Shown: positions 3,030 to 54,115 of the stretch, in pieces
How positions within the stretch are numbered: position 1 is the stretch's first letter
How the letters are laid out: the number at the start of each line of letters is the position of its first letter
Assembly (NCBI GenBank): GCA_022773425.1
Contig: JALFBM010000031.1
Coordinates: 13,905-77,904 of the forward strand
Origin: Selenomonadaceae bacterium
Lineage (GTDB): Bacteria; Bacillota; Negativicutes; Selenomonadales; Selenomonadaceae
DNA length: 64,000 nucleotides
Direction: 5' to 3'
Notes under the pieces: model-generated
Database searches by the model: none
The model's input: the letters and a program-made list of their open reading frames with translations, nothing else
What the model was told of the DNA's origin: nothing
Made by a program: the position numbers and the translations under genes

Positions 3030-3132
3030 AAGCGTCACGCCTTTCTTCCCAAATCTCTGGATATAGAGAAACGGCTGCACCTCACGTGCACCCGTTTCCT
3101 TTATTCCCGCGCTTTCCTAGCCTAGGCGGATA

Positions 3133-5139: not shown

Positions 5140-5187
5140 GATGCAAACATCTCCTATGCATATCTTGCGATATCATGCTGTCGCTTG

Positions 5188-6522: not shown

Positions 6523-7778
6523 TTCGGCAGCCTCCCATCCAAAAGTAACACCGCATCCAGCATGGTCTGTGCGGCAATCGCGACGGATTTCTCCGGCGCC
6601 GCCTCCTGCGGGCAGTGACTGTACCCATCGACCGTCGATACGAACAGCATACCCGCCTTCGTGACGCGTGCCAGGTTCGCCGCATCATGGCCAGCCATAC
6701 TCACGAGCTCGCGCCGCGGCTCATGCAGTGCCTCGGCCGCATCGCCGATGGCCTCGATGACCTCGCCTGCCATCGGCATCTCCGCCTGGTCGAGGTTCAA
6801 TTTACGCTCGATGACGACGCCGCGCGCCTGTTCTATTCCGCGGACGGCTTCGCCAAAATGCGCGAGCGCCGCAGCCCGCGTCTTAGGATTCGCCGTGCGC
6901 AGGTCAAGCGTCAGCATGACCTGCGCCGGCACGATGTTCGACGCGTTCGGCTGCGCCTGAATATGCCCGACCGTCGCCGCGAGATCCGGCGCCCCCCGCA
7001 TTAGATCCTCGACGGCAAGCACGATATCGGACGCCGCCGCAAGGGCGTCGCGCCGGTTCTCGAGCTGCGTAGTCCCCGCGTGGTTGGCCTCTCCGTGTAC
7101 GTAGAGGATCTCGCGGTAAATCCCGGTGATGCAGGTGACCGCGGCGATGTGCTCGCCGGCGTCGTAGAGGCGACGCCCCTGCTCGATATGACATTCGAGG
7201 AAGGCGGCGAGCCTGCCCTTCTCGAGCCGCGCGTCCTCGGCCACGCGGTGGATGTCGCCGCCGAGGCGGGCGATGGCCGTCTCCAGCGTCTCCCCCGTCA
7301 CGCGGTTTCGGATCTGCTCGAGATCTTTTTCCACGAGCCGCCCGCATAGCACCTTCGAGCCAAGCGTCGACACGGAAAAATCGCTCGGTTCCTCACCGGT
7401 CATAGACAGCGTCCAAACCGGATGCCGGAGCGCTGCCCCGTTCTCGAGGAGCGTCTGCACGACCTCCGTCGCCATCAGCACGCCGAGTGCGCCGTCATAG
7501 GCGCCGCCGTTCGGCACGGTATCGTGATGCGAGCCGAGTACAATCGGTTTCCCCGCCGCGGCGCCACAGGGCTTCCCCCATAGGTTCGCTATGGCATCGG
7601 TATGTACACCGAGCCCGATGTTTTCCCAAAGGGCCTTGAGCCAGGCGCGCGCCTCGCTGTCCGCCGGGCTCGCGAGCTGGCGGTCGATGCCGCCCGCCGC
7701 GTTCCGCCCGATTTTCGCAAGCTCCCTGAGCTTCTCCTGCAGGCGCGCCGCATTCACGCGCAGACGATTTCCGGCCAT
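6519..7778 (-). CDS. M20-family Zn amidohydrolase (N-carbamoyl-L-amino-acid hydrolase / allantoate amidohydrolase type)
   Basis: Motifs LGSHHDTVPNGGAYDGALGV, MTGEEPS and HGEANHAGTT. Start set to ATG 7778, 8 nt after AAAGGAG. The stop overlaps the next start (ATGA 6519-6522). Confidence 0.75.
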   Translation of the reverse strand: MAGNRLRVNAARLQEKLRELAKIGRNAAGGIDRQLASPADSEARAWLKALWENIGLGVHTDAIANLWGKPCGAAAGKPIVLGSHHDTVPNGGAYDGALGVLMATEVVQTLLENGAALRHPVWTLSMTGEEPSDFSVSTLGSKVLCGRLVEKDLEQIRNRVTGETLETAIARLGGDIHRVAEDARLEKGRLAAFLECHIEQGRRLYDAGEHIAAVTCITGIYREILYVHGEANHAGTTQLENRRDALAAASDIVLAVEDLMRGAPDLAATVGHIQAQPNASNIVPAQVMLTLDLRTANPKTRAAALAHFGEAVRGIEQARGVVIERKLNLDQAEMPMAGEVIEAIGDAAEALHEPRRELVSMAGHDAANLARVTKAGMLFVSTVDGYSHCPQEAAPEKSVAIAAQTMLDAVLLLDGRLPK

Positions 7779-7826
7779 GAGCATCGCTCCTTTCTCTTGC
7801 CGCTGCCCGATGTTCCCCATCAAGGA

Positions 7827-8837
7827 TCAGAGATACGAACCGTCAAGCACATCCTCCGGCGCGACCGGCTTATCGATCAGCTTCAGCTCCGTCCAAAGAT
7901 CCGATGCCATCTTCGCTACCTTGTAGAAATCGCCGGGGTTCTCCTTCGTGCCGAAATACTTCTTGTTGCCCTCTTCGTCGTAAAACGTGACGTCCTGCAG
8001 CTCGCTCTTGACGTTCTCCGGCTTCTCACCGAGATGCTTCGCGATGATATCGATGGCCTCGTCCGGATGTTCCTTCAGGAACCGGATGGCGTCATACCAT
8101 GCGGCCGTAATGCCCTTTACTGCCTCCGGATGCGCCTGGATGAAGTCCTTGCGCATCGCGAACGTATCGACGATGATGCCCGGGGTCGCCTTGCTGTCCA
8201 TCAGCGTATGCCCGAAATCGGTCTTCGAGGCCTTCGAGAGCCACGGCTGCCACGTGATGGCGGCGTCGACCTTGCCCGCGACGAACGCCGCACCGGCATC
8301 GCCAGCCGCCATGTTCTGTACATCAAAGTCCTTGATGCTCATGCCCTTCTGATGAAGTAGATACTGGAACCAGAAGAAATCCGCGCCACCGGTCGTATCC
8401 AGCGCGACCTTCTTCCCCTTCAGATCTTCCAGGGAATTGTACTCCTTCTTCGCGATAATGCCATCGCCGCCAGAGGACGTATCGAGCGCCAGGACACAGG
8501 CGAGGTCGATGCCGCTGCTCGCGTTGACAATCTGCGTATCGATCGTCGTCGACACGCCCTGAATGCGTCCCGCGGCGAGCGCGCTCTTGCTGTCCGCCTT
8601 GGACTCAATCGACTGAACCTCGACATTGACGCCATGATCCTTGAAAAAGCCCTTATCCTCCGCGATATAGAACGGCGCAAAGCCGATCCACGACGCCTGC
8701 CCGATGATGATTTTATCGCCCGCGCCGGACGAGCTGCTGCTCGTAGCAGCCTGCTTCGTGCCGCCGCAGCCAGCTGCCACGGCCACAAGTGCTGCCGACA
8801 GGGTAACGGCGAAAACTTTCTTCCAAAATGCTTTCAT
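7827..8837 (-). CDS. ABC transporter substrate-binding lipoprotein, NitT/TauT (NMT1/THI5-like) family, copy 1
   Basis: Lipobox (LVAVAAGCGG) and an NMT1-like core (WIGFAPFYIAEDKGFF...VALDTTGGADFFW). Start at ATG 8837 (MKAFWKK) after AGAGGGGGG. Confidence 0.8.
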   Translation of the reverse strand: MKAFWKKVFAVTLSAALVAVAAGCGGTKQAATSSSSSGAGDKIIIGQASWIGFAPFYIAEDKGFFKDHGVNVEVQSIESKADSKSALAAGRIQGVSTTIDTQIVNASSGIDLACVLALDTSSGGDGIIAKKEYNSLEDLKGKKVALDTTGGADFFWFQYLLHQKGMSIKDFDVQNMAAGDAGAAFVAGKVDAAITWQPWLSKASKTDFGHTLMDSKATPGIIVDTFAMRKDFIQAHPEAVKGITAAWYDAIRFLKEHPDEAIDIIAKHLGEKPENVKSELQDVTFYDEEGNKKYFGTKENPGDFYKVAKMASDLWTELKLIDKPVAPEDVLDGSYL

Positions 8838-8876
8838 GATGAATACCCCCCTCTGGGAAATACAAAAACGATCCAT

Positions 8877-9293
8877 TCAATCCATGAGGCACAGCGTGCC
8901 CGTCTCCACATTGAGGTCAGCGGACTTGCCATCCAGTTTCCCGCTCGCCGCGGCCTGGTAAAATTCCTCCGGCATGCGGTTCACGAGCGGCAGATCGAAG
9001 ATGATCGCGCTCGCTGCCAGCGTCGTATCCGCATCGCGGACGATGATGGCAGCGGGGCCCTTGCCCGTGAGCTTCAGCTGGTACATGCCGTCCGCCTGGA
9101 CGACGGAACTGCCCTTGCCATACGGGAAGACGAGGATTTTCCCCGTCACGCACTGCCCGTAAAGGCAATGCTGCTTCTCGATGATCTTCCCGGTTTTCGG
9201 GTCGATCAAATAAAAGCAAATCGGATCCTCCGAATAAAGAAGCTCGCCGGACGCCTTTCCACCGGCAATTTTATGGCAGGAAAAAGTTTTCAT
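8877..9293 (-). CDS. Aconitase X small (swivel, DUF126) subunit
   Basis: 138 aa from ATG 9293 (MKTFSCHKIAGGKASGELLY); GKILVFPYGKGSSV and PAAIIV fit DUF126. A GGAGG RBS is present. The ORF-track start at 9446 overlaps the upstream gene. 0-nt gap to the binding-protein start region. Confidence 0.75.
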   Translation of the reverse strand: MKTFSCHKIAGGKASGELLYSEDPICFYLIDPKTGKIIEKQHCLYGQCVTGKILVFPYGKGSSVVQADGMYQLKLTGKGPAAIIVRDADTTLAASAIIFDLPLVNRMPEEFYQAAASGKLDGKSADLNVETGTLCLMD

Positions 9294-9307: not shown

Positions 9308-10507
9308 TCAATACTCGCCCGCGAGGGCGGCTTCGACGGAATCTTTCAGCGGCGCGAGAACGAAATCCATCTGACGGCGCTTTGTGTAGTACGCGCATTT
9401 CGGGGAATCCGTGATCCCGCGCTTGCCGTAGAGGAATTTCCAGCACGGCTGGTCCATGCAGGTATCGTCGATGATCCAGCCGCCGGCCTCGCGAATGATG
9501 GCCTCGTAACCCATCTTCTCCGCTAGATTCTTCGTCAGCGACGACGTCATGATGAACATCGGCACCGCGAGCTTCTTGCCTTTGACGATCTCCGCGATCG
9601 TCGTGACCTGGTCAATCGTAAAATGCGGGCAGCCGTATAGCGCGAAATCAATCTTTCCGCCCGGCGCCGTGAGCTCGCTGCGCATCGTCTCGAGGTCCGC
9701 CCGCGTGATCGTGACTTCCTTTTTCGGCTTCTTTCCCTGGAACGCCGCCTCGCGCGTCGGCGCTTCCGGCGTGAAGCCGACGATATGGTAAAGTGCGACG
9801 TTGCCGCCCGTATTGAGCTGCGCGCCGAGGTTCATCAGCGCTTCCTTCGACGGGTTTTCGAGCCCCTCGAAAACCGGTACGCCGAAGCCCGTCTTGCGCG
9901 GTGCAAAATAACCGAGCATCTGATAGTCGAAATCGTCCTGCATATCCGCCTCAACGTGGACGAGAACATCACCCGCCCGGTTCTCATCGAGCAGATAGCC
10001 GTAGTAAGGCGTCACACCGGTCACCGCGGAGCAAAGCGCGCTCTGCGCGGCCTCGCGATTCGTCCGCGCGCCGTAAACCGAATTGACAAACGGCGTCGCA
10101 CTGGACTCGGAGAACGAGAGGATCTCCCCGAAGCGCGGTACGTTGCGCTCGAGGTACGGCGTGCAATCATACGTCATGATGGCGCCGAGCTTGGTGTAGG
10201 CCGCGTGCGTGCGCTTGACGATGGAAAGATCCTCCGGTTCCACATGCGTGAAGGCTTCGCATTGCTTCCAATTAAAACTCGGGTTAACCGTCGGACGCAC
10301 GCGACAGTGCGCGCCGCCCTCTGCCAGACGTTCGGCAAACCACAGATCCGCCTCCTGATTGCTCAGCGCGACATGCGTGCGCGTAACCGGCACCATATAC
10401 GGCGCATCATAGGCTTCGCCGATCGCAACGAGTACCTTCATGGCGAGCTGCGTACCCGGCCCGTATTTGCCATCGAGCATGGCCTGTTCTTCTGCTTTTA
10501 GTTTCAT
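9308..10507 (-). CDS. Aconitase X large (catalytic, DUF521) subunit
   Basis: 399 aa from ATG 10507 (MKLKAEEQAMLDGKYGPGTQLAMKVLVAIGEAYDA), the typical DUF521 N-terminus. A GAGGAGG RBS is present. Confidence 0.8.
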   Translation of the reverse strand: MKLKAEEQAMLDGKYGPGTQLAMKVLVAIGEAYDAPYMVPVTRTHVALSNQEADLWFAERLAEGGAHCRVRPTVNPSFNWKQCEAFTHVEPEDLSIVKRTHAAYTKLGAIMTYDCTPYLERNVPRFGEILSFSESSATPFVNSVYGARTNREAAQSALCSAVTGVTPYYGYLLDENRAGDVLVHVEADMQDDFDYQMLGYFAPRKTGFGVPVFEGLENPSKEALMNLGAQLNTGGNVALYHIVGFTPEAPTREAAFQGKKPKKEVTITRADLETMRSELTAPGGKIDFALYGCPHFTIDQVTTIAEIVKGKKLAVPMFIMTSSLTKNLAEKMGYEAIIREAGGWIIDDTCMDQPCWKFLYGKRGITDSPKCAYYTKRRQMDFVLAPLKDSVEAALAGEY

Positions 10508-10600
10508 GTTGTCCTGCCTCCTCAACGATACGCCATCGCGGTATGTTTGATGGGCACATTCTCTCGTTTTTAGGATTGATGATATTATTCATCCGAAGGA

Positions 10601-10646
10601 AAACAAAAAGGTGTTCAAGACAGTTTTCTCTGTCTCGAACACCTTT
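10601..10646 (-). terminator. Rho-independent terminator after rpiR-like gene
   Basis: About 16-bp imperfect stem (aaaggtgttcaagacag / ctgtctcgaacaccttt), followed on the minus strand by TTTTTGTTTT. Confidence 0.65.
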
Positions 10647-10713
10647 GTTCTCTATCTACGTTTAGAATACCACGAGGCTTACAGTATGTCAATATGATTC
10701 CCTTTTGTATACA

Positions 10714-11583
10714 TTATTTTGTAAAGTACACCATATTCCGCTTCTCGATGTCCTCGATGGCGTCGATGCGACTCTTGAGTTGCGGCATCTGTGCGGCGGC
10801 ATCCTGCAGCATCAGGTTCAGAAACGTCAGCGGCGTCCCATATACGTCAAACAGAGCCCCCGTCGTAATCGGCACGCAAACCGCATGGTCGACGACCGGC
10901 ACGAGCGGCGAAAAGGTACTGTCCGTCAACCCGGTGATCGGAATGCCCTTCTCCTTGATGATCCGGCATTTCTCAATCAGCGTGCGGGAGTACCGCGGGA
11001 ACGCCACCGCGAGGATGTTTACATCCTCCGGGGAAAGCAGCTCGAGCGTCTCAAAATCCCGCGTCGCCGGCAGGACGGTCGAGACGTTCTCCCGCATTTT
11101 CCCGAGAATATACGCCGCGTATGGCAGCAGCGTCGCCGACATCCGCGCAGAAATCAGAATCAGCCGCTTCGGCGAGAGCACCATCGAAAGCATGGCCTGA
11201 TAGGCCGGCCCGAGGAAGGCTTTCTCCAGGCCATCGAGGTTGCGGATCTCACTGTCGAGTATGGGGCGCCTTGCGCTGCCCTTGTGGTGATGCCCCTTCG
11301 GGCTGCTGTAATGAAGGCGTTCCGGCGCCGTGAGCTTCTTGAGCATCACCTGCTGCAGATTGCGCAGGAATTCGTTGTAGCCATGATAGCCGAGCATCAT
11401 GAAGAACCGCGATACGCTCCCCTGCGAGACACCCATATCGTCCGCGAGCTCGCTCGCCGTCATGAAGATGATCTGCAGATAATTCTTCTCGATGTACAAC
11501 GCGATTTTTTGATTGGTCGGCGACTGCTTGGCCGCATTGGCAAGCAGCAGCGAAAGCTGTTCCGGCGTCTCAAAGGCTGGCAT
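10714..11583 (-). CDS. MurR/RpiR-family transcriptional regulator (HTH + SIS)
   Basis: HTH region MTASELADDMGVSQGSVSRFFMMLGYHGYNEF plus a C-terminal SIS domain. Start set to ATG 11583 (MPAFETPEQ, AAGGAG RBS) because a near-consensus promoter overlaps the ORF-track start. Confidence 0.8.
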   Translation of the reverse strand: MPAFETPEQLSLLLANAAKQSPTNQKIALYIEKNYLQIIFMTASELADDMGVSQGSVSRFFMMLGYHGYNEFLRNLQQVMLKKLTAPERLHYSSPKGHHHKGSARRPILDSEIRNLDGLEKAFLGPAYQAMLSMVLSPKRLILISARMSATLLPYAAYILGKMRENVSTVLPATRDFETLELLSPEDVNILAVAFPRYSRTLIEKCRIIKEKGIPITGLTDSTFSPLVPVVDHAVCVPITTGALFDVYGTPLTFLNLMLQDAAAQMPQLKSRIDAIEDIEKRNMVYFTK

Positions 11584-11617
11584 ATGGCGTTTCTCCTTTT
11601 CTAACCGATTCCATTTC

Positions 11618-11647
11618 ATTATAGTCAGCCTCTTTCTTCTTTGTCAA
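11618..11647 (-). promoter_or_regulatory. Sigma-70/SigA-type promoter for rpiR-like gene
   Basis: On the minus strand: TTGACA (11647..11642), 18-nt spacer, TATAAT (11623..11618). Confidence 0.6.
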
Positions 11648-11684: not shown

Positions 11685-12932
11685 TTATGTTGCGGAGGAG
11701 AGGAGTTCCAGGCGCGGATTTTTCTTCACCTCGGGAAGCAATGCGCCGCTGACCTCGATTTCCTGCAGCGACAGCGTATTCTTGATGCGAACGATTTTTG
11801 CCTGTTCCGGGCGCACGCCGCGACAGAGCTTCAGAGCAATACGGACTGCCTCATCTTCGTCCCTTGCCTGCAGCGGAATCCTGGCATCCTCGACACAGCG
11901 GCAGGCAATCGCGTTCGCGTACATCGCCTCAAAATCGATGTTGGGCAGAATGTTCTTCGTGATGACGTCGAAGAGACCGATGCCGATGGCATTGCCATGC
12001 GAAGCCTCCGTAACATCGAGAAGGACCATGCGCGAAATGGCTGGAATCGGCACGAGAAAGTCATCCCGCGCCGTGCTGCGCCCGACGATGTTCGGGTCAA
12101 AGCCGGCGCCGGAAACATCCTTGCCGATTTCCTTCATCACGAGCACGTCAATGGACGGGAGCAGCAGCCCCGGGAAATAGCCGATGGATTTCTGGACGAG
12201 AGCCTTCTCCTCCTCGATCAGCGTTTCCCGCGGCAAAGCGTGAATCTCCGCCGTCTCGTCGAGGGCATTCTCAAGGATAGCGAGGCCGAAGCCGACCGGC
12301 GCCTTCTGCAGAATCATCCGCGCAGCTTCTTCTAGAACCGATGCAAACCGGCTGCTCGGCGTCCCGTGAATTTCCGTGCACCCGCGCTGATTGCCGAGCC
12401 CGATGACGAGCATCTTCGCAATGCCGCTCTGCAGCGGCCCGATGAAGTCCGTATGCAGTTTGATGCGATTGATCGGGACGATGAGGTCCGCGTTGTATGC
12501 CGTGCGGTCAAAATACACATGCGTGCCGTCTGCCAGCCGGCCGAGCTCGACCGTATCGACGTCCGTGATGACCGGTACGCCCATGTTCTCTTCGGTGATG
12601 CCGTAGGCGGCGAGCACCTCGCGCTGCCCTTCCTCCGTTCCGCCGCCATGGCTCCCCATGGCCGAGACGATGAAGGGCTTTACCCCCGCCGCCTGGAGTT
12701 CCCGCAGCACGCATTGCACCATGCAATCTAGATTCGCGATGCCGCGGCTGCCAACCGCGACGGCGACGCGGGCCCCCGGATGCAGCTTTTCCCGAATCGC
12801 AGCGCGCATACATTCCGCGTGAATGCGCGCGGGAATCGCCGCGCGCGGCAAGGTCACCGTATCGAAATGCTGGCGCACACGGTACAAACGGGGCAGGGGA
12901 TAGTCGTACTCCTGTGGCAATAGCAGCGGCAT
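11685..12932 (-). CDS. LarA-like (DUF2088, lactate-racemase N-domain family) protein
   Basis: 415 aa. VAVAVGSRGI / AMGSHGGGTEEGQ / INRIKLHTDFIGPLQSGIAKM line up by eye with the LarA topology. Assignment is from memory only. Confidence 0.5.
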   Translation of the reverse strand: MPLLLPQEYDYPLPRLYRVRQHFDTVTLPRAAIPARIHAECMRAAIREKLHPGARVAVAVGSRGIANLDCMVQCVLRELQAAGVKPFIVSAMGSHGGGTEEGQREVLAAYGITEENMGVPVITDVDTVELGRLADGTHVYFDRTAYNADLIVPINRIKLHTDFIGPLQSGIAKMLVIGLGNQRGCTEIHGTPSSRFASVLEEAARMILQKAPVGFGLAILENALDETAEIHALPRETLIEEEKALVQKSIGYFPGLLLPSIDVLVMKEIGKDVSGAGFDPNIVGRSTARDDFLVPIPAISRMVLLDVTEASHGNAIGIGLFDVITKNILPNIDFEAMYANAIACRCVEDARIPLQARDEDEAVRIALKLCRGVRPEQAKIVRIKNTLSLQEIEVSGALLPEVKKNPRLELLSSAT

Positions 12933-12955: not shown

Positions 12956-13765
12956 TCAGTTCTCCTCAAGCATCCTCTGCAGCTTCATGCGCAGGGCGAC
13001 GAAATCCTCCGTCTCCTTTAGGGACTGCTTGCGGTCGTACGGCAGATATACCGGAATGACCTCTCGGATACGGCCCGGACGCGCGCTCATGACGTAGATT
13101 TTCGAAGCGAGAAACACTGCCTCCTCGATATCATGCGTGACAAACGCGATGGTCGGCCGTTCTTTCTGCCAGATGCTGCGGATCAACTGCTGCATCTCCG
13201 ATTTGGTGATCGGGTCGAGCGCGCCGAACGGCTCGTCCATCAGCAGCAGTTCCGGATTGGTGGCGAGCGCGCGCGCGATCGCCACGCGCTGCTTCATACC
13301 GCCGGAAAGTTCCTTTGGATAAGCGTCACGGAAGCCCTTGAGCCGCATGAGCCCGAGATATTTGTCGATGATTTGCTCCTGCTCTTCCTTTGGCGTTCCC
13401 TTTTCCTTCAGGCCGTAAGCGATGTTTTCCGCGACGGTCATCCACGGGAACAGCGTATACGTCTGAAAGACCATGCCGCGGTCGGGGCCAGGCCCTTTGA
13501 CCGGGCGGTCCTTGATGACGATCTTCCCCTCGGTCGGAAAATCCAGCCCCGCGAGCATGCGCAGAAGTGTCGATTTGCCGCAGCCGGAGGTACCGACAAT
13601 GCAGACGAATTCATTCTCGAGCACTTCGACATTCACATCTTCGAGGGCCAGCGTCGTCTTAGCCTTGCTTTCATACCGCTTGACGATATGACTCGCACTG
13701 ATGATGGTGGAAGCGACCTTTGCCTCAATCGGCGTCGCCAGATTCGTCTCAGACAAGGACATCAT
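12956..13765 (-). CDS. ABC transporter ATP-binding protein, NitT/TauT family, copy 1 (no adjacent permease)
   Basis: Walker A GTSGCGKST, signature LSGGMKQR, Walker B LLLMDEPFGALD, H-loop THD. Start at ATG 13765 (MMSLSE) lies 17 nt inside the upstream PII gene. Confidence 0.85.
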   Translation of the reverse strand: MMSLSETNLATPIEAKVASTIISASHIVKRYESKAKTTLALEDVNVEVLENEFVCIVGTSGCGKSTLLRMLAGLDFPTEGKIVIKDRPVKGPGPDRGMVFQTYTLFPWMTVAENIAYGLKEKGTPKEEQEQIIDKYLGLMRLKGFRDAYPKELSGGMKQRVAIARALATNPELLLMDEPFGALDPITKSEMQQLIRSIWQKERPTIAFVTHDIEEAVFLASKIYVMSARPGRIREVIPVYLPYDRKQSLKETEDFVALRMKLQRMLEEN

Positions 13766-14096
13766 CCCCCTGCTGCCCGGTCCGGATGCGCAGCGCGCTC
13801 TCGGCCGGCAGTACAAAAATCTTGCCATCGCCCGGATGTCCCGTGGAGTTTTCCTTCATCAGGATATGGACGATCTTATCGACATCCGCATCGCGCGCAA
13901 AGATATCCAGATAGCGCTTTGCAATGAACCGGATCCCTACCGTTTCCTTTTCCTCGCTGTCGGTATGGAATACCACGCGCTGCCTGCCGCGGCCGATGAC
14001 CTCTTTCGTCGTCATCGCGTTGAAGCCGTTCTGGATCAGGATTCGCTTTGTCGCAAAATAGCGGTTGGGACGAATAATCGCTACGATTTCTCTCAT
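13749..14096 (-). CDS. PII-family signal protein, NifI2-like (extended T-loop)
   Basis: 115 aa with MREIVAIIRPN, GRGRQ and GDGKIFV. The T-loop carries an insertion (VVFHTDSEEKETVGIRFIAKRY). Confidence 0.7.
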   Translation of the reverse strand: MREIVAIIRPNRYFATKRILIQNGFNAMTTKEVIGRGRQRVVFHTDSEEKETVGIRFIAKRYLDIFARDADVDKIVHILMKENSTGHPGDGKIFVLPAESALRIRTGQQGDDVLV

Positions 14097-14423
14097 TCAG
14101 AGTTCCTCCTTCCCGGTCGAAACGGTATAGGCGGTCAGCACATCCTGCACAAAAATCTTGCCGTCGCCGAATGCACCCGTTTCCTCCGTGCGCGCCTCCT
14201 TTTCGATCGTCTTCACGACATCCTCCGCGTCTGCATCCTCAACGACCATGACGAGCATCTCTTTCGGGATTTCGTCGTAGTAGACGTCTCCGACCTTCAG
14301 TCCGCGCTGTTTGCCGCGGCCAAGCGCGCTGATGCGCGTGACGGAATTATGCCCTTTTTTCTCAAGCGCCGTAAGAACCGGCAATACCTTTTCCGGGCGT
14401 ATGATGGCTTTGATCATCTTCAT
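14097..14423 (-). CDS. PII-family signal protein, NifI1-like
   Basis: 108 aa with MKMIKAIIRPEK, GRGKQRGLKVGDVYYDEIPK and FGDGKIFV. 0-nt gap to the next PII gene. Confidence 0.7.
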   Translation of the reverse strand: MKMIKAIIRPEKVLPVLTALEKKGHNSVTRISALGRGKQRGLKVGDVYYDEIPKEMLVMVVEDADAEDVVKTIEKEARTEETGAFGDGKIFVQDVLTAYTVSTGKEEL

Positions 14424-14468: not shown

Positions 14469-15641
14469 CTATCCAAGTTTCAGCATCTTATGATAGATTT
14501 CAACTAGATCCGCTTTGGATACCGGCTGACGAGGGCAGCCCTCGATATCGATCTCGAGCAGGGCCTCTCCGGCCATCTGATCGATAAACGCCTCATCGAC
14601 CGGGCCAATATCCAGCTTCTCATCGACGCCGATGGCCTGAAACAGCGCGTGCAGCTTGTCGATCAGGAAGTCTGCGGCTTTCTCCTCCGCCACAGAGGCG
14701 GCTGCCGGGTCGATGTAGTCGATGATTTCCTTGTATTTCTTCGCCGAAACCTTTGCCGTGTACTCAATGGTCGGGATCTGCGCGACGCCGACGCCGAGGC
14801 CGTGCGGAACCTTCTTGCGCGCAGAGAGCGGACAGGACACCGCATGCGGGATGATGCAGCCGTTCTTCGACTGCGCAATGCCCGCGTACATCGAGGCAAG
14901 GGCCATGTAGTTGCGGGCCTCTTTGTCACCGGCGACCGATGCCGGCAGATACTCGAGCGTCAGCTTGATGGCCTCTTTCGAGAACAGATCCGCCATCGTA
15001 TTCTCGAGCGTCGAGACATAGGCCTCGAGCGCATGGCCGAATACATCGAGGCCCGTGTTCGCGCAGACGGATTTCGGCATGCCGTAGGTCATCTCCGGAT
15101 CGACATAGGCATATTTCGGGAGCAGGATACCGTCGTAGAACACGTCCTTGATCTGTTTTGTGTCGATGAGCACGATGCACTCCGAGACCTCCGAGCCGGT
15201 GCCCGCCGTTGTCGGCACGGCGATCAGCGGCAGCAGCGGATTCTCGACCTTACGCGCCTTATCCCCGCGCAGGTACATGTAGTCCTCGATGCTGCCCTCA
15301 TTCGTCGCGATCACCGCGGCGCCTTTGCCGACATCCATCGAGGAACCGCCGCCGATGGCGATGATGATATCGCAGCCCTCCGCACGGATTTCCTTTGCGC
15401 AGGCGTCGACGGACAGGACGCTCGGGTTCGGTGTGAATTCGCTGAACAGCAGATACGGGACATGGCCCGCATCGAGGACATCCGTGACCGGCTTCATCAT
15501 ACCGAGCTTGCGGAGGTCTTTATCGATGACGATCATCGCCTTGCTCGCATGCTCTGCCCGGACGGCGTTCAGAATTTCCTTGACCTTGCCGGCGCCGAAT
15601 TCGATATCCACAAAATGTTTATAAGAAAATGGTGCAATCAT
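14469..15641 (-). CDS. Iron-containing alcohol dehydrogenase
   Basis: Fe-ADH motifs AIGGGSSMDVGK, AVPTTAGTGSE and GLDVFGHALEAY. Start at ATG 15641 after GAGAGGAG. Confidence 0.85.
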   Translation of the reverse strand: MIAPFSYKHFVDIEFGAGKVKEILNAVRAEHASKAMIVIDKDLRKLGMMKPVTDVLDAGHVPYLLFSEFTPNPSVLSVDACAKEIRAEGCDIIIAIGGGSSMDVGKGAAVIATNEGSIEDYMYLRGDKARKVENPLLPLIAVPTTAGTGSEVSECIVLIDTKQIKDVFYDGILLPKYAYVDPEMTYGMPKSVCANTGLDVFGHALEAYVSTLENTMADLFSKEAIKLTLEYLPASVAGDKEARNYMALASMYAGIAQSKNGCIIPHAVSCPLSARKKVPHGLGVGVAQIPTIEYTAKVSAKKYKEIIDYIDPAAASVAEEKAADFLIDKLHALFQAIGVDEKLDIGPVDEAFIDQMAGEALLEIDIEGCPRQPVSKADLVEIYHKMLKLG

Positions 15642-15690
15642 GGCAGTTTCTCCTCTCACGAACCAATTCCGCGTAACCGCGTCCCGCTAT

Positions 15691-17178
15691 TCAGTCTACC
15701 GGACCAAACCATCCGGTCGGTTCCGGCTTCAACAGAACATTGACCTGCTTGATTTCCGTGAATTCATCGAATCCATAAGTGCCGAGCTCGCGGCCGATAC
15801 CGCTCTGCTTGTAGCCGCCCCACGGCGCTTCATTGTAGACCGGGCCGAATTCGTTGACCCATGTGATGCCCGCACGGATCTTCTTGACGACGCGCAGCGC
15901 TTTTCCGATATCCTTCGAGAACACGCCCGCGGCGAGGCCATACGTCGTGCCGTTAGCCAGCTCGATGGCTTCCTGCTCCGTGTGGAATTTCTGCAGGCAG
16001 AGCACGGGGCCGAAAATCTCCTCCTGCACGATGGTCATATCCGGTGTGCAGTCGCCGAAAATCGTCGGCTGGACGAAATAACCTTTGGCCAGCTCTCCCT
16101 CTGTCGCACGGCCGCCGCCGACAAGGACTTTCGCACCTTCCGCCTTGCCCTTCTCGATATAGGCGAGGACCTTCTCCATATGCTCTTTCGTGACGAGCGG
16201 CCCCATCGTGACGCCCTCCTCAAGGCCGTTGCCGAGTTTGATCTGTTTCGTGACTTTGACGAGCGCCTTGACGAATTTGTCGTAGATCGTGTCCTGGATG
16301 AGGATGCGCGAGCTCGCGGAGCAGACCTCGCCCTGGTTGTAGAACATGCCGAAGGCCGCATAATCCACCGCATTCTCGAAATCGGCGTCATCGAAGACAA
16401 CAATCGGGGATTTGCCGCCGAGCTCGAGGCAAATGCCCTTGATGTTCGTCGCCGCTGCGCGCATGACGCTCTGGCCGGCTTCGATGCTGCCCGTGAACGC
16501 GATCTTATCGACGTCTGTGTTTTTCGCGAGCTCATCGCCGACATCGCTGCCGCCACCGAGTACAAGGTTCACGACGCCCTTCGGGAAACCGACATGCTCC
16601 ATGATCTCGAAGAGTTTGATGGCGGAGAGCGGCGTCGCGCTCGCCGGTTTCAGAATAATCGTATTGCCGGCGGCCAGTGCCGGAGCGAGCTTCCACATCG
16701 CCAGTGAAATGGGGAAGTTCCACGCCACAATCATGCCGACCACGCCGATCGGCTCGCGGATCGTCATGGCGTGCACATCGGGAGACGGGACGCTATAGGT
16801 CTGCCCGCTCGGCTTCGTGCAGATACCGGCGTAATAGCGCAAACAGGCGGCACTGTCATAGACATCGTAGCTCGCTTCCGTCAACGTCTTGCCGTTGTTC
16901 ATCGTCTCAATGCGGGCGATCTCATCGACGCGCGCTTCCATCTCATCCGCGAACTTGATCAGTAGCGCGGCGCGGTCGGTCGCCGCCCCGTCGCTCCAGC
17001 TGCCTTCGTCAAAGGCCTTGCGGGCCGCCTGGATGGCGCGGCGCGCATCTTCGCGGTCACCGCGCGTCACGCGGGCAAAGACCTCGCCGGTCGCCGGATT
17101 GATGACATCCTTTGTCTTGCCAGATGCCGCGTAGACCCATTCCCCATTGATGAACATTTTCTGCGTTTCGATTTCCAT
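15691..17178 (-). CDS. NAD(P)-dependent aldehyde dehydrogenase
   Basis: 495 aa with FTGSIEAGQSV, LELGGKSP, catalytic Cys in GEVCSASSR, and EEIFGPV. Confidence 0.9.
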   Translation of the reverse strand: MEIETQKMFINGEWVYAASGKTKDVINPATGEVFARVTRGDREDARRAIQAARKAFDEGSWSDGAATDRAALLIKFADEMEARVDEIARIETMNNGKTLTEASYDVYDSAACLRYYAGICTKPSGQTYSVPSPDVHAMTIREPIGVVGMIVAWNFPISLAMWKLAPALAAGNTIILKPASATPLSAIKLFEIMEHVGFPKGVVNLVLGGGSDVGDELAKNTDVDKIAFTGSIEAGQSVMRAAATNIKGICLELGGKSPIVVFDDADFENAVDYAAFGMFYNQGEVCSASSRILIQDTIYDKFVKALVKVTKQIKLGNGLEEGVTMGPLVTKEHMEKVLAYIEKGKAEGAKVLVGGGRATEGELAKGYFVQPTIFGDCTPDMTIVQEEIFGPVLCLQKFHTEQEAIELANGTTYGLAAGVFSKDIGKALRVVKKIRAGITWVNEFGPVYNEAPWGGYKQSGIGRELGTYGFDEFTEIKQVNVLLKPEPTGWFGPVD

Positions 17179-17219
17179 GGAATTCAGCCTCCTTCAACCA
17201 GAATTCGAATCATCCCGCA

Positions 17220-19256
17220 TCAGCCCTTCAGCATGCGTGCATCCACGGCGACTGCCGTGTCCTCGTAGGCGAATACCGGGTTGAGATCCATCTCCTTCAA
17301 ATCGCGATAGCGGAAAGGAAGTTCCGAGACATGCACCAGCAGAGCGGCCAGGCGGTCGAAGTCGACCGGCCCCTGCCCTCGCACGCCCTCGAGCAGCTTG
17401 TGCGCCTTGATGCCCGCCATCATCTCGCGCGCCGTCTCCTCGCGAATCGGCGCGACGCGGAACACGACGTCCTGAAACACCTCCGTATAGATGCCGCCGA
17501 GACCGAACGCAACGACCGGACCGAATGTCGCATCGCGGATGAGTCCGATGATGAGCTCCCGTCCGGGCGGCAGCATCTTCGATAAAATGGCCCCGCGAAA
17601 ATCCTTCCCGGCGCCGATCTGCGCGAGCTTGCGGAACGCCGAACGCGCGCCCGCTTCGTCGCCGATGTTCAAAATGACGCCGCCGACATCCGATTTGTGC
17701 AGAATCTGCGGCGATACGATCTTCATGACGACCGGGAAGCCGAGTTTTGCCGCCTCCGCGGCGGCCTCTGCCTCGCTGTGCACGAACGCGTATTGCTGTA
17801 CCGCAACGCCGTTTTCCCGCAGAAGCTGCTTTGCGTCCGGCTCGAGGAGCTCCGCCGGCAGCGGTTTCAGCTCTCCTGCCGGCAGCGGCGCGGTACCGAG
17901 CGGCGCCCTGCGCCTCTCTTCATAGGCTGCCATCTTCGAGAGCGCGCTGACGAAGCGTTCCCCGCTCTCATAATGCGGAATGCCCGCCCGCGCGAGGATT
18001 TCCCGCGCTTCCTGTATGTCGCTGCCGACTTCAATATGCGCGGCGATCGGCTTGCCGGACTTGCGGGCGGCTGCGGCGATGCCTTCCGCAATCGGCACCG
18101 ATTTTAGATACGGTGTCCCGATATAGAGCGCGAGCGCCGCGTCATATTCCTGCAATGCCGTCTCAAGCGATTCCTCGTACTGCTCGCCCGTGCCCTCAAC
18201 CGTAATGTCGAGCGGATTTTTGACGCTTGCAAAGGAAGGCAGGAACTCGTACAAGCTCTCCTTCATGCCGTCCGTCGGCTCGGGCATGGTAAGCCCGACC
18301 TCCTCGGCGCGATCGGTCGCCATGACGCCCGGCCCGCCGGAATTCGTAACGACCAGCAGTCGTTTGCCCTGGACCGGCGGCAGCATCGCGAATCCCTTGC
18401 AGATGTCGAACATTTCTTCCAGCGACATCGCGCGGACTGCGCCGCACTGGCGGATGGCCGCGTCGAAAACGCCATCCGCGCCAGCCATGGAGCCGGTATG
18501 CGACAACGCCGCGCGGCTGCCCGCGCTGCTGCGGCCCGCCTTCACGATGACGACCGGCTTGACCTTCGCCAGCTCCGCCAGGGTCTTCAGAAAGGCCCGC
18601 CCGTCATGCACGGACTCCATATAGCACGCGACGACCTTCGTATGCGGATCGTCCTTGAGCCAGCCGAGGAACTCGAGCATGTTGAGGTCGAGGCCGTTGC
18701 CGAAGCTCACGAATTTCGATACGCCGAGGCCCTGCGCCTTTGCCATCGCCATCAGGGAGCCGCCGACCGCGCCGCTCTGTGAAATGATCGCGATATTCCC
18801 CTCCGGCGGCCGCGTCTCGAGCGTCGCGAGCAGATGATCCTGTGTGCTAACCACCCCGGCGCAGTTCGGCCCTACAAAACGGATGCCATACTTCCGGCTG
18901 ACCGCAAGAATGGCTTCCTCGCCCTCGCGGTTGCCGGCCTCCGAAAAGCCGGAGGTGATGATGGCCGCGGCCTGGATGCCCTTTTTCCCACAGTCCTCCA
19001 GGACGGCCGGCACCGTTGCCGCCGGCGCCGCGATGACCGCGAGATCCACCACGTCTTCGATGTCGAGCACGGATGGATAGCCTTTGACTTCCTTGCCCGG
19101 CACATCCGCTACGCCCTGCCCCTTCGGGTTCACGGCGTAAATTTTTTCCATGCCGCCCTCAATCAAACGGTGAATCAGTACGTTGGCGAGCTTGCCAGGC
19201 TTTACCGAACCGAAAACCGCCACGCCCTTCGGGCTGAACAGTGCATCGTATACCAT
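17220..19256 (-). CDS. ADP-forming (NDP-forming) acyl-/acetyl-CoA synthetase, fused alpha-beta
   Basis: 678 aa. A CoA-binding / succinyl-CoA-synthetase-like N-half (GVAVFGSV, SQSGAVGGS, HTGSMAG) is fused to a C-terminal ATP-grasp domain. Confidence 0.85.
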   Translation of the reverse strand: MVYDALFSPKGVAVFGSVKPGKLANVLIHRLIEGGMEKIYAVNPKGQGVADVPGKEVKGYPSVLDIEDVVDLAVIAAPAATVPAVLEDCGKKGIQAAAIITSGFSEAGNREGEEAILAVSRKYGIRFVGPNCAGVVSTQDHLLATLETRPPEGNIAIISQSGAVGGSLMAMAKAQGLGVSKFVSFGNGLDLNMLEFLGWLKDDPHTKVVACYMESVHDGRAFLKTLAELAKVKPVVIVKAGRSSAGSRAALSHTGSMAGADGVFDAAIRQCGAVRAMSLEEMFDICKGFAMLPPVQGKRLLVVTNSGGPGVMATDRAEEVGLTMPEPTDGMKESLYEFLPSFASVKNPLDITVEGTGEQYEESLETALQEYDAALALYIGTPYLKSVPIAEGIAAAARKSGKPIAAHIEVGSDIQEAREILARAGIPHYESGERFVSALSKMAAYEERRRAPLGTAPLPAGELKPLPAELLEPDAKQLLRENGVAVQQYAFVHSEAEAAAEAAKLGFPVVMKIVSPQILHKSDVGGVILNIGDEAGARSAFRKLAQIGAGKDFRGAILSKMLPPGRELIIGLIRDATFGPVVAFGLGGIYTEVFQDVVFRVAPIREETAREMMAGIKAHKLLEGVRGQGPVDFDRLAALLVHVSELPFRYRDLKEMDLNPVFAYEDTAVAVDARMLKG

Positions 19257-19269
19257 TCTGCCGCCCCCT

Positions 19270-19875
19270 TCAGATTTCTTTTACCACCGCTGTGCGCCCG
19301 GCCTCAAAGGCAAACGCATTTACCTTCGCGGCTTTCGGCCAACGCGTTTCCAGCAGCCCTCGGATTTCCTCCTGCGGGAAGACCTGGCTGAGCTTCGTCC
19401 GGCCGAACAGGCTTCCGAGCACGAAGATATTGTCCCGGATCGGACGCCCCTGGAAATCCGGTTTCTCCTTCGGGTCGAGTACGATGGCTCTGCCGCCCGC
19501 CTGCCCGATTTCCCTTACGACGGTATCCGCTTCCGGATACGGCGCCTTGCCGAGCATGACCGCGGCGGGATTCCAGCGATTCGTGTAGAGCAGGAACTCT
19601 CCGCCTTTCTTGAGATACCGCACGCCCTTCAAGGCCTCCGATTGCTCCATCGCGATGACGAGATCCGCACCGCCCTCCGGGATATCCGGGCCGACCTCCG
19701 CCGAGCCGATCCGCAGCTGTACCTTGACGAACCCGCCGCGCTGCGCCATGCCTTTCGTCGGGTAGTAATTCACCGGCATATCCTTCTGAAACGCCGCCTT
19801 GGTCAGGATATCCGCAATGGTCAGGACGCCCTGGCCTCCGACGCCCACGATATAAATGTCCAATGTCTGCGCCAT
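19270..19875 (-). CDS. iorB: Indolepyruvate:ferredoxin oxidoreductase subunit beta
   Basis: 201 aa with DIYIVGVGGQGVLT. Lies 12 nt downstream of iorA. Confidence 0.8.
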   Translation of the reverse strand: MAQTLDIYIVGVGGQGVLTIADILTKAAFQKDMPVNYYPTKGMAQRGGFVKVQLRIGSAEVGPDIPEGGADLVIAMEQSEALKGVRYLKKGGEFLLYTNRWNPAAVMLGKAPYPEADTVVREIGQAGGRAIVLDPKEKPDFQGRPIRDNIFVLGSLFGRTKLSQVFPQEEIRGLLETRWPKAAKVNAFAFEAGRTAVVKEI

Positions 19876-19887
19876 GCTGTTTCCTCC

Positions 19888-21753
19888 TCACGCCTTGACG
19901 AGCGCACCGAATTTGCAGATCTGCGTGCAGATTCCACAGCCGTTGCACTGCGTGGCATCAATCGAAATCTTTCCATCGGTAAAGTCAATCGCCGGACAGC
20001 CGGTCTGATGGATACAGAGCTTGCAAGCCTTGCATTTATCCTCGACAACCCGCACCGTGCCGTAGCGGATCTTGCGGCGACCGGCCTGAATGGCGCACTC
20101 GCGGCGCGCGAGGACAACGCTCGTGCCTGAATATTGCATGGAGTCCGCGATGGCGTCCGTCATGCCGGCGAGGTCATAGGGATCGACGACCTTGAAGTCC
20201 GCAACGCCGAGCCCACGCACCACGCTCTCGATATCGATCTGGTGCCATACATGCTGCGGCGAATGCTGCGCTTCCTGCATCGTGCCCGGATTGACCTGCA
20301 TGCCGGTCATGGACGTCCAGCCGTTGTCCATGATGATCAGCGTCAGGTTCGACGCATGCTGCAGGGCGTTGACGAGGCCTGGCATGCCGGCATGGAAGAA
20401 CGTCGAATCGCCGATGGTCGCGATAACCGGATTTTTTGTACCGGCGTAGACAAAGCCCTGTGCCAGCGAGACGCTCGCGCCCATCGCGACTTCCGTCCAA
20501 AGAATCTCGAACGGCGGTGTCGTGCCGAGAATCGTGCAGCCAATATCGCCGGTTACGACGACCTCCTCCTTCTTCCTATGCAGTTTGCGGATCGCCTGCG
20601 CGATGGAAATGTAAGTGCCGCGATGCGGGCAGCCGGCGCAGACGGTAATCGGACGCGCAGCCGCGTACTTTTCCGGCTCGATGGCCGGCTTCTCGAGGAA
20701 CGCCGGCATCGCCGTACCGAGCAGCTTGATGATGCCGCGCTCGATGAGATCCGCGTTGTAGCAGCCGATGCGGCGGAAGGTCCCGTCGTTCTTCCCGAGG
20801 ATCTTTGCCTTCGCGCCCATCTGATAAGCGAGCAGGATGGCACGGTTCTCCACGTAGGGCTCGAGCTCCTCGAGCACCAGGATGTTCGAGCAGTTCTTCA
20901 GAATGGCCTTGAGCTCCGTATCCGCATACGGGAGCGTTTCCTTCAGATCGAGAACGGAAACCTCGGAGAGGTCGATGCCCGCCTTTTCTAACGCCGCGAA
21001 AGCCTCCCGGCGGTACAAGCTCGCCACGCCGAGCGCGATGACGCCTAAGCCGCCGGCCTTCTTGAGGGAAAGCGTATTAATGCCGGCTGCGGCAATCGGT
21101 GCTTTTGCTTTCTCGAGGCGGTCGAGCAGAGCCTGGTGCTGATCCATACAGATTTTCGCGCCGGCCTTCGTGTATTTCGCCATATTGTGCTCGAGCAGCG
21201 GGTGGCCGGTCTCCGGCAGGACACGCGGCTCGATCTCCACAGGGCCGTGTGACTGCGAGAGGCTCGTGACCGAACGCAGAAATACCGGTCCGCCGATTTC
21301 CTTCGCGACTTTGAACGCGAGCTTCGTCATATCGTAGGCTTCCTGCAAGGTAGCCGGCTCAAAAACCGGCATATCGCTGATCAAGCCAAAGCCGCGCGAA
21401 TCCTGCTCCGCCATGCCGGCGGAAACGCCAGGATCGTCGACCACATAGACGACCAGCGCGCCCGTACAACCGGAATAAGCAATGGATATCAGGCTGTCAT
21501 ACGCTACGTTGACGCCCGTCATCTTCATCGCGCACATCGTCGGATAGCCGAGCAGCGCCCCGCCAGCCGCGACCTCAAAAGCGACCTTTTCATTGGCACT
21601 CCACTCGACATCGGTTCCCGGCAGATCCATCGTCAGCAGCGTCTCGATCATCTCGGTCGAAGGCGTCCCCGGATAGCCGGCAACGATCTTGACGCCCGCA
21701 GCCAGCGCTCCGTAAGCAACCGCTTCATTGCCGCTCAAAAGTTTCTTTGCCAT
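19888..21753 (-). CDS. iorA: Indolepyruvate:ferredoxin oxidoreductase subunit alpha
   Basis: 621 aa with a TPP-binding region (GDIGC, GDSTFFHAG) and two C-terminal 4Fe-4S motifs (CKACKLCIHQTGCP, CNGCGICTQIC). Confidence 0.85.
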   Translation of the reverse strand: MAKKLLSGNEAVAYGALAAGVKIVAGYPGTPSTEMIETLLTMDLPGTDVEWSANEKVAFEVAAGGALLGYPTMCAMKMTGVNVAYDSLISIAYSGCTGALVVYVVDDPGVSAGMAEQDSRGFGLISDMPVFEPATLQEAYDMTKLAFKVAKEIGGPVFLRSVTSLSQSHGPVEIEPRVLPETGHPLLEHNMAKYTKAGAKICMDQHQALLDRLEKAKAPIAAAGINTLSLKKAGGLGVIALGVASLYRREAFAALEKAGIDLSEVSVLDLKETLPYADTELKAILKNCSNILVLEELEPYVENRAILLAYQMGAKAKILGKNDGTFRRIGCYNADLIERGIIKLLGTAMPAFLEKPAIEPEKYAAARPITVCAGCPHRGTYISIAQAIRKLHRKKEEVVVTGDIGCTILGTTPPFEILWTEVAMGASVSLAQGFVYAGTKNPVIATIGDSTFFHAGMPGLVNALQHASNLTLIIMDNGWTSMTGMQVNPGTMQEAQHSPQHVWHQIDIESVVRGLGVADFKVVDPYDLAGMTDAIADSMQYSGTSVVLARRECAIQAGRRKIRYGTVRVVEDKCKACKLCIHQTGCPAIDFTDGKISIDATQCNGCGICTQICKFGALVKA

Positions 21754-21788
21754 ATGCCTCTCCTACCTTATTCTCACAGCTTTTCTTC

Positions 21789-25398: not shown

Positions 25399-25485
25399 GG
25401 CTCCGCTCCCTTTCTTTTCGTTCGCGAATTTGATTGAATAATTCATTTCTCTGATAAATGATTGATTCATTCATGTTGGAGAAAT

Positions 25486-25530: not shown

Positions 25531-25640
25531 TGGCTTTATTATAGGTTCAACTGTGTATCATGTCAATACTTTTTCCATGTTTTTTCAAGTATCTTGTATA
25601 CGAAAAGCAAATTTGCCTTTTACACCATGACAATTATCTT

Positions 25641-29799: not shown

Positions 29800-29809
29800 A
29801 GAGATAGAA

Positions 29810-29883
29810 CCGCGTGACTGACGGAAGTGGAGGATACCACAGGGAGCGCGGAATTGCGTAGAAAAAGCCGACCGTCTGGGCAG
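29810..29883 (+). ncRNA. ZTP (pfl-motif) riboswitch aptamer
   Basis: CCGCGUGACUGACGGAAGUGGAGGAUACCACAGGGAGCGCGG, a linker, then CCGACCGUCUGGGCA. P1 is ccgcg/cgcgg and P2 is gtgg/ccac. The pseudoknot GACGG (29820-24) / CCGUC (29872-76) is a compensatory variant of consensus GGCG/CGCC. The conserved GUGACUG and CUGGGCA strings are present. Confidence 0.85.
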
Positions 29884-29912
29884 AGGAAGCCTGGATTTGT
29901 CGGCTTTCTTTA
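29864..29912 (+). terminator. Riboswitch expression-platform terminator
   Basis: Stem aaagccgac (29864-72) / gtcggcttt (29899-907), followed by CTTTAT. The 5' arm overlaps the pseudoknot strand, giving ON-switch logic. Confidence 0.75.
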
Positions 29913-47233: not shown

Positions 47234-47250
47234 GTAGTATCCCTTCTGCG

Positions 47251-49119: not shown

Positions 49120-49124
49120 GGCGT

Positions 49125-54077: not shown

Positions 54078-54115
54078 CGCAAAAATCCCTCCATCATATA
54101 AGGCATAGAACGCCT

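Follow-up and report, generated by a model that had tools for sequence, protein, structure and literature searches.

Gene organization of the PII pair and its importer operon

The stretch of DNA analysed here (64,000 nt of contig JALFBM010000031.1 from a Selenomonadaceae bacterium, referred to as the window) carries two adjacent PII genes which by phylogeny group with the nitrogenase regulators NifI1 and NifI2, but lie in the operon of a NitT/TauT-family ATP-binding cassette (ABC) importer. The two proteins, PII-1 (14097-14423, minus strand, 108 amino acids) and the divergent PII-2 (13749-14096, minus strand, 115 amino acids), matched PF00543 with 76.9 bits (E 1e-21) and 66.6 bits (E 1e-18), respectively, the gathering cut-off being 25 bits, and no other sequence of the window matched the PII motif. 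The TGA codon of PII-1 abuts the ATG codon of PII-2 with a 0-nt gap, and a strong ribosome-binding site, AAGGAGA, lies 5' of PII-1. Both translations contain GDGKIFV, an N-terminal motif (MKMIKAIIRP in PII-1 and MREIVAIIRP in PII-2) and the T-loop base (GRGKQRG and GRGRQRV, respectively). The upstream neighbour of PII-1 is a gene for an iron-containing alcohol dehydrogenase (Fe-ADH, 14469-15659), and the downstream neighbour of PII-2 encodes an ABC ATPase (ATPase2, 12956-13765, minus strand). The ATG of the ATPase2 gene at 13765 is located 17 nt within the PII-2 gene; another in-frame ATG is present at 13762, where the closest homologue starts. Because of these contiguous and overlapping junctions, PII-1, PII-2 and ATPase2 are considered to be translationally coupled.

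These results partly confirm the original prediction, which had been made by inspection of the sequence. The two abutting PII open reading frames, their hallmark motifs and their position between the Fe-ADH and a NitT/TauT-type ATPase gene were borne out by the coordinates, the translations and the PF00543 scores, but the long T-loop ascribed to the second PII protein and the description of the ATPase as an orphan were not upheld, as described below. The AlphaFold2 model of PII-2 has the PII fold (predicted local distance difference test score, pLDDT, 85.9), and a Foldseek search with the model gave TM-scores of 0.7-0.8 to GlnK/PII structures, a comparison by which NifI2 and GlnK are not separable.

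ATPase2 is an NrtD/CmpD-like ATPase of the NitT/TauT type (PF00005; 211 bits to NrtD, 8wm7_D), and its closest solved homologues are NrtD, CmpD, CmpC and NrtC. Rather than being an orphan, it is encoded in one operon with an ABC permease (BPD_transp_1, SsuC/TauC/NtrB-like; 23594-24382), a further NitT/TauT ATPase (ATPase1, 22766-23563) and two substrate-binding proteins (SBPs) of the NMT1/SsuA family, SBP1 (24397-25470) and SBP2 (7827-8876, with a lipoprotein-like N-terminus), all on the minus strand and all identified by profile matches. The operon thus has the set of components of such importers, namely a NitT/TauT binding protein, a permease and two distinct nucleotide-binding domains (NBDs). 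The two ATPases are 54% identical. Both are single-domain proteins (265 and 269 amino acids, as opposed to 665-690 in NrtC and CmpC), and the C-terminal SBP-like regulatory domain of the NrtC/CmpC type is absent from both. There is only one permease gene in the operon beside two SBP and two ATPase genes, which suggests that the NBDs either pair as a heterodimer, like NrtC and NrtD, or form homodimers of one ATPase or the other.

ATPase2 possesses a conserved N-terminal peptide, PIEAKVASTII, which is missing from ATPase1; in the form [PH][LI]EAxVAS..I it is common to ATPase2 and to the ATPase of the urea-type loci described below. The Walker A motif is found at residue 52-68 in all 120 of the 120 best ATPase2 homologues and at about residue 40 in ATPase1, which has no N-terminal extension. 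Residues 1-19 of ATPase2 were modelled as a low-confidence coil (AlphaFold2 pLDDT 41-61). A disordered N-terminus as predicted by the model would be in keeping with a docking peptide, though it does not constitute evidence of one. The idea that the extension is unique to PII-linked ATPases was weakened by the alignment with NrtD, which starts at residue 13 and reveals a comparable extension.

A site matching the sigma-70 consensus promoter at 12 of 12 positions (25538-25566, minus strand) is present 5' of SBP1, and the gene of an RpiR-family regulator further downstream in the cluster has its own promoter with the same 12/12 match (11647-11618, minus strand); both assignments are consensus matches only. 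Since the promoters sit before SBP1 and rpiR, a single transcript appears to cover SBP1, the permease, ATPase1, the PII pair and ATPase2. Judged from the sequence, transcription of the unit with the PII pair is likely to begin at the promoter at 25538-25566.

Assignment of the two proteins to the NifI family

A neighbour-joining tree with bootstrap analysis was constructed from 102 sequences, comprising the window pair, six pairs from loci of the same type as the window (designated Hut-type after the Hut-like genes described below), five other ABC-linked pairs, 29 nif-embedded pairs, 18 sequences of the GlnB/GlnK type and both PII chains of the structure 9p1x. PII-1 fell into the NifI1 group (98% bootstrap) and PII-2 into the NifI2 group (86%), while the GlnB/GlnK sequences formed a separate group (91%) that contained neither protein. 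By phylogeny, PII-1 is therefore a member of the NifI1 subfamily and PII-2 of the NifI2 subfamily, as the original prediction had proposed. The Hut-type pairs formed clades of their own, supported at 73% (NifI1) and 81% (NifI2). Together with four urea-type pairs they were united at only 45% and 67%, respectively.

Similarity searches are in agreement with the tree, more clearly for PII-1 than for PII-2. The best Protein Data Bank match of PII-1 was 9p1x_H with 99 bits, the next one reaching 57 bits. The best match of PII-2 was 9p1x_G, whose 77.5 bits barely exceed the 75.7 bits of Aquifex GlnB, so that this score alone is ambiguous. The structure contains 12 chains of the H type (105 amino acids), which we take to be NifI1, and six of the G type (125 amino acids), which we take to be NifI2. 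PII-1 is 49-62% identical to nif-linked NifI1 proteins, and its MgATP/2-oxoglutarate pocket residues show exactly the nif-linked NifI1 pattern; similarly, the ligand-pocket residues of PII-2 follow the pattern of bacterial NifI2. In a search of 5.8 billion proteins, PII-2 was found in a small clade of its own at 58-93% identity, the next relatives being proteins of 119-128 amino acids with at most 46% identity which are labelled 'PII 2' by their sources. The nearest named relatives originate from metagenome-assembled genomes (MAGs) of Selenomonadaceae. No NifI-type model of NCBIfam matched either protein; only GlnB/GlnK models did so, with 38-59 bits against cut-offs of 181-202, which is far below the equivalog level.

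The second protein had been predicted to carry a long T-loop insertion. The span from G35 to K58 is, however, 26 residues in PII-2, 24 in GlnB and 20 in PII-1, and the alignment of PII-2 with Aquifex GlnB showed a surplus of two residues in the T-loop, which is short for a NifI2 protein. Among the matches listed, 61 nif-linked NifI2 proteins have a span of at least 30 residues. PII-2 (115 amino acids) and its clade (114-117) also lack the length of 120-133 amino acids that goes with the extended T-loop of nif-linked NifI2, and the loop ends in FIAK instead of [LW]IPK. In contrast, PII-1 has the short loop of NifI1: its 20-residue span and the motif GRGKQRG are identical in pattern to those of 61 nif-linked NifI1 proteins among the matches listed. 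A NifI1-type subunit that is nearly unchanged and a NifI2-type subunit with a shortened and rewritten T-loop are what a change of target with the sensing function kept would look like. The loss of Q39 and G41 in PII-2 was also considered as a mark of re-targeting and was discarded, since nif-linked bacterial NifI2 proteins mostly have K39 and V41 or I41 too.

Conservation of the gene order in relatives

The order PII-1, PII-2, ATPase2 was found in every relative of the PII-2 clade with a readable context, and it is kept in eight diverged Hut-type lineages in which PII-2 is 47-94% identical to that of the window. The relatives with a readable context are loci L001-3 (Selenomonadaceae MAGs), L006-8, L009/10, L011/12, the compact locus L004/5, L093, on a JGI metagenome contig, and L101, a Hut-type locus from an Oscillospiraceae MAG. 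L093 was the only close relative detected when metagenome contigs were searched with a single protein. The compact locus L004/5 comprises the permease, ATPase1, PII-1, PII-2, ATPase2 and an SBP, and no genes for Ior, acyl-CoA synthetase, the LarA-like protein, AcnX or urocanase were found within the 20 kb examined at L004. The transporter, and not the catabolic genes of the window, is therefore the constant partner of the PII pair.

Distant relatives were collected by a profile search of genome contigs with the PII-2 clade; the matches listed all have at most 46% identity, and the clade itself is absent from them. Among these matches, NifH is encoded directly upstream of the pair in 62 of 80 distant relatives (genome representatives), which are thus true NifI pairs, and no ABC ATPase gene is located near the pair in any nif-linked locus. 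In five of the loci listed (L013, L018, L019, L064 and L078), genes of a NitT/TauT transporter come after the pair instead. Four of these are flanked by genes for DUF1989 proteins, urea carboxylase and allophanate hydrolase, whereas L078 is an ABC-linked variant without urea carboxylase.

The association also emerged from the side of the ATPase. When ATPase2 homologues were picked by ATPase similarity alone, the PII pair was found upstream of all three (L100, L101 and L102). L101 is the Hut-type locus mentioned above, and L102, from a Clostridium sp., is of the urea type. L100 is a urease-associated locus on a metagenome contig, and its ATPase cluster includes Roseburia sp. MSJ-14. Between 5399 and 14837 it has two PII genes, then the permease and the ATPase gene, no NMT1 binding protein having been called in the vicinity, and then genes for a CN-hydrolase, two Fe-ADHs, a class-III aminotransferase, an aldehyde dehydrogenase and urease. 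Another urea-type locus, L103 from Clostridium tyrobutyricum, was found via a PII-1 homologue; four tandem DUF1989 genes (4130-6947), twice the usual pair, are located there just before the PII pair. L104, likewise found via a PII-1 homologue, from other Clostridium species, is nif-embedded (nifH, I1, I2, nifDKEN). In total, the pair lies beside an NrtD-like ATPase gene in at least 16 distinct loci of four kinds: Hut-like, those with urea carboxylase/allophanate hydrolase (L013, L018, L019, L064, L102 and L103), urease-associated and one other. Enzymes that release nitrogen from a nitrogen-rich compound are encoded in all non-Hut ABC-linked loci but L078. The orthologues are not nif-linked, every relative examined has the pair followed by the same ATPase, and the constant neighbour of the ABC-linked pairs is the NitT/TauT transporter.

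Two MAGs, Bacillota OH_CBB_158 (L084/L018) and Ethanoligenens WK034_bin.8 (L027/L064), possess both a nif-linked and an ABC-linked pair. Within these MAGs the two pairs are only 53-57% (NifI1) and 40-45% (NifI2) identical to each other, and we therefore regard the ABC-linked pairs as specialised paralogues and not as misplaced nif genes.

The absence of nifHDK, amtB and glnA from the 64-kb window, as originally stated, was corroborated by three kinds of scan. Queries for NifH, NifD, NifK, NifE and NifN-B taken from the nif locus L050 gave no tblastn match in the window, PROSITE-type motifs of glutamine synthetase and Amt were not found in it, and no nif, glnA or amtB gene was present among its other large open reading frames scanned with Pfam. 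NifI genes are typically located in a nif operon between nifH and nifD; the window and its Hut-type relatives have no nif genes.

The catabolic gene cluster around the pair

The block between ATPase1 and PII-1 (14469-22769, minus strand, profile matches) encodes a D-2-hydroxyacid dehydrogenase, IorA, IorB, an ADP-forming acyl-CoA synthetase, an aldehyde dehydrogenase and the Fe-ADH. On the other side of the pair, also on the minus strand, there are genes for a LarA-like isomerase with a nickel-pincer cofactor (11685-12932; NCBIfam group 22, 487 bits vs a cut-off of 400), the RpiR-family regulator (10714-11619, HTH_6 and SIS domains) and the large (9308-10525) and small swivel (8877-9293) subunits of AcnX, the last three assigned by profile matches. 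These are followed, beyond SBP2, by Hut-like genes (1162-7823, minus strand) for an M20 carbamoylase/amidase, a HutF-like amidohydrolase, HutU, HutI and a candidate HutD. HutU (425 bits vs 375) and HutI (453 vs 298) both pass their NCBIfam equivalog cut-offs, and the operon therefore ends in a predicted nitrogen-releasing route from urocanate to glutamate. The candidate HutD was assigned by its position, which corresponds to that of a PF05962 orthologue in related loci, the open reading frame of the window having no NCBIfam match. No HutH was noticed among the genes of the cluster. The urocanase (3133-5139, minus strand) has 668 amino acids and is matched by the HutU model from residue 98 on; the N-terminal extension of about 95 residues is not peculiar to it, as the long form (668-676 amino acids) is common to the relatives.

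The intergenic region that separates the stop codon of rpiR (10714) from the start of AcnX (10525) contains, at 10607-10692 on the minus strand, a promoter-like site with a 10/12 match and a TG extension, which is followed by a hairpin with a 17-bp stem and a T-run. As far as can be seen from its position, this hairpin might be either the terminator of rpiR or a leader/attenuator of an AcnX-Hut unit.

Altogether, the cluster of about 24 kb (1162-25566, minus strand) unites the Hut-like route, AcnX, the LarA-like isomerase and the dehydrogenase, Ior and acyl-CoA synthetase genes, and much of this gene set is found again in L001-L003, L006-L012, L093 and L101. The cluster may represent a pathway, not described so far, for a 2-hydroxy or 2-oxo acid with an imidazole group; a literature search on LarA together with the urocanate pathway revealed nothing relevant.

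Relation to known PII systems and a possible mechanism

The closest known counterpart of the pair is the NifI1/NifI2 switch-off system of methanogens and some anaerobic bacteria. According to a preprint (bioRxiv 10.64898/2025.12.07.692841), NifI1,2 are mixed trimers with ligand sites of the types I2/I1, I1/I2 and I1/I1, which implies two NifI1 subunits to one NifI2. The same preprint reports that the NifI2 T-loop makes most of the contacts with NifDK, and that MgATP with 2-oxoglutarate flips the NifI loops and frees nitrogenase (bioRxiv 10.64898/2025.12.07.692841). The window pair resembles this system in the adjacency of its two genes, the short-loop gene preceding the longer-loop one, in the tree groups and in the ligand-pocket residues, and by analogy the same logic, inhibition at low 2-oxoglutarate, would be expected. 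Unlike NifI1/NifI2, the pair lies outside a nif operon and has an ABC ATPase as its conserved neighbour, and the T-loop of PII-2 falls short of that of NifI2 by about 4 to more than 10 residues.

The original prediction had also pointed to the control of NitT/TauT importers by cyanobacterial PII through their ATPase subunits, and this precedent is real: PII binds the NBDs of NrtBCD (PMC6603209, PMC10945777). GlnB-type PII sits asymmetrically on one NBD and locks the importer in the inward-facing state, and ATP with 2-oxoglutarate prevents the binding (PMC10945777, PMC6603209). The operon of the window resembles NrtABCD, as both comprise a NitT/TauT importer with two different NBD genes and one permease, and both would serve the import of a nitrogen source. 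The regulator of NrtABCD is, however, a homotrimeric GlnB encoded elsewhere, whereas a NifI-type pair is encoded here inside the transporter operon. Moreover, the core of GlnB binds NrtC, which has the C-terminal SBP-like regulatory domain that the window ATPases lack. Cyanobacterial GlnB-type PII is also linked with the CmpABCD-type architecture and with UrtE of the urea transporter. GlnK-AmtB offers another parallel, as the PII gene is co-transcribed with the transporter that its product plugs and the block is relieved by 2-oxoglutarate and ATP; GlnK is, however, a single homotrimer that inserts its T-loops into a channel, whereas here a two-gene pair accompanies an ABC importer.

We consider it fairly probable that the two proteins form a heteromeric complex of the NifI type whose target is no longer nitrogenase but a NitT/TauT-family importer, which it would gate in response to 2-oxoglutarate. 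Gating via ATPase2, according to the nitrogen and energy state of the cell, is proposed because the closest solved homologues of ATPase2 are NBDs of cyanobacterial importers, among which NrtBCD is locked by PII, and because of the synteny. Our proposal as to assembly, effectors, target and direction of regulation runs as follows. By analogy with NifI1,2, PII-1 and PII-2 would assemble as a 2:1 mixed trimer. Under nitrogen sufficiency (low 2-oxoglutarate, ADP or ATP bound), the complex would dock on the cytoplasmic NrtD-like ATPase2 and block the uptake of a substrate rich in nitrogen. This substrate is probably urocanate or an imidazole acid akin to it, from which the Hut-like enzymes would produce glutamate and ammonia. 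When 2-oxoglutarate rises, MgATP and 2-oxoglutarate would shift the T-loops, the complex would leave and import would resume. The docking site may be the conserved, disordered N-terminal peptide of the NrtD-like ATPase. Since the Hut-like pathway yields nitrogen, such a role would be a non-nitrogenase one and yet still a form of nitrogen control. Of the observations that would have refuted the original prediction, none was made in the trees, in the relatives' synteny or in the nif search of the window. The trees and the synteny support the earlier suggestion of a 2-oxoglutarate/ATP-sensing switch for a catabolic operon or its importer that is not concerned with nitrogenase; the gating itself is what we infer from them.

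Several points weigh against gating of the importer. The support for it is gene context throughout, and operon neighbours can be co-regulated without interacting. As NrtD has an N-terminal extension too, this feature of ATPase2 is not specific to PII-linked ATPases. The T-loop of PII-2 differs among the Hut, urea and urease types though their ATPases are 61-66% identical; docking may therefore involve another element than this loop, or the types may have different targets. Further, of the source genome the search for nif genes covered the 64-kb window. Finally, a biotinyl domain is part of the urea carboxylase of L013, L102 and L103; PII is known to bind biotin carriers, and the urea-type pairs could therefore act on this enzyme. 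More generally, the pair might regulate an enzyme of the local pathway instead of the transporter (the LarA-like isomerase, AcnX, Ior or acyl-CoA synthetase in the window, urea carboxylase elsewhere), which would be in line with the many enzymes under PII control and with the position of the pair amid catabolic genes in the window. We nevertheless hold an enzyme target to be unlikely, since no enzyme family is common to the Hut, compact L004, urea, urease and L078 contexts, which share only the NitT/TauT transporter, and since a transporter gene invariably comes right after the pair.

As hubs, PII proteins have numerous targets, and the operon types come with different regulators (RpiR, LuxR/GerE). 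Both facts would suit a pair that is merely co-expressed with the operon and acts on a general nitrogen target encoded elsewhere, such as glutamine synthetase, an ammonium channel or a transcription factor. Several paralogous pairs per genome, each bound to one operon, make this quite improbable, and both the coupling to ATPase2 and the association with a single ATPase subfamily argue for a partner that is encoded locally and served by this pair alone. The identity of PII-1 to nif-linked NifI1 would also fit an ordinary nitrogenase brake whose nif genes are elsewhere in the genome and whose position in the window is accidental. This explanation we regard as very improbable: the synteny with the ATPase is kept across lineages down to 47% PII-2 identity, the pairs form a clade apart from the nif-linked ones, the T-loop that would bind NifDK is shortened and rewritten, nif-bearing genomes have a separate nif-embedded pair, and the window has no nif genes.

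Other features of the window

The remaining large open reading frames with Pfam matches include gyrA, purH, a malic enzyme gene, polysaccharide-synthesis genes, Tad-pilus genes and a secretin gene. A ZMP/ZTP riboswitch (RF01750) was detected at 29804-29888 on the plus strand (57.8 bits vs a gathering score of 39), and the purH-like AICARFT/IMPCHase reading frame (29946-31121) lies directly 3' of it, which is the canonical arrangement. The Tad/Flp pilus cluster (52315-63958) includes the secretin gene (60251-61861), and a protein with SIS and CBS domains, possibly KpsF-like, is encoded at 32717-33694. The secretin, the Tad cluster and the SIS-CBS protein point to a diderm host of the Negativicutes type, consistent with the Selenomonadaceae relatives. 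At 45953-49131 on the minus strand, a gene for a family-2 glycosyltransferase adjoins one for a polysaccharide deacetylase/GHL13 protein, and a TPR protein is encoded at 49125-51020; by their predicted products, the genes at 45953-51020 resemble an exopolysaccharide locus of the poly-N-acetylglucosamine type (pgaBC-like).

Significance

A 2026 review places nifI1 and nifI2 in nif operons, and reviews and, in the passages considered, 2025 structure papers treat NifI1/NifI2 as nif-operon regulators acting on nitrogenase. Full-text searches of the literature and the passages considered of one 2025 structure preprint yielded no NifI pair outside nif operons, nor any PII pair encoded with urea carboxylase or a NitT/TauT importer. 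Taken separately, NifI heteromers and ABC importers controlled by PII are familiar, and it is their combination inside transporter operons of anaerobic Bacillota that appears to be undescribed. We would give an even chance to the wider proposition that a sister lineage of NifI, widespread in anaerobic Bacillota, is not nitrogenase-specific and serves as a dedicated 2-oxoglutarate gate of NitT/TauT importers. Its carriers would be rumen and gut Selenomonadaceae and Oscillospiraceae, Lachnospiraceae/Roseburia-like bacteria and C. tyrobutyricum, and the gated alternative nitrogen sources would include imidazole acids of the urocanate type, urea, and compounds with ureido or amine groups.

If this is true, the NifI family would have a second class of targets, and these proteins, the only PII proteins known to be heteromeric, would have a wider range of targets. 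It would also mean a second, independently evolved PII control of an ABC importer, in this case in non-phototrophic anaerobes. 'PII 1 / PII 2' (nifI) annotations would then be unsafe as markers of diazotrophy in metagenomes. For the organisms themselves, the finding would suggest a post-translational way in which Bacillota of gut and rumen set priorities among nitrogen sources such as urea and imidazole acids derived from histidine.

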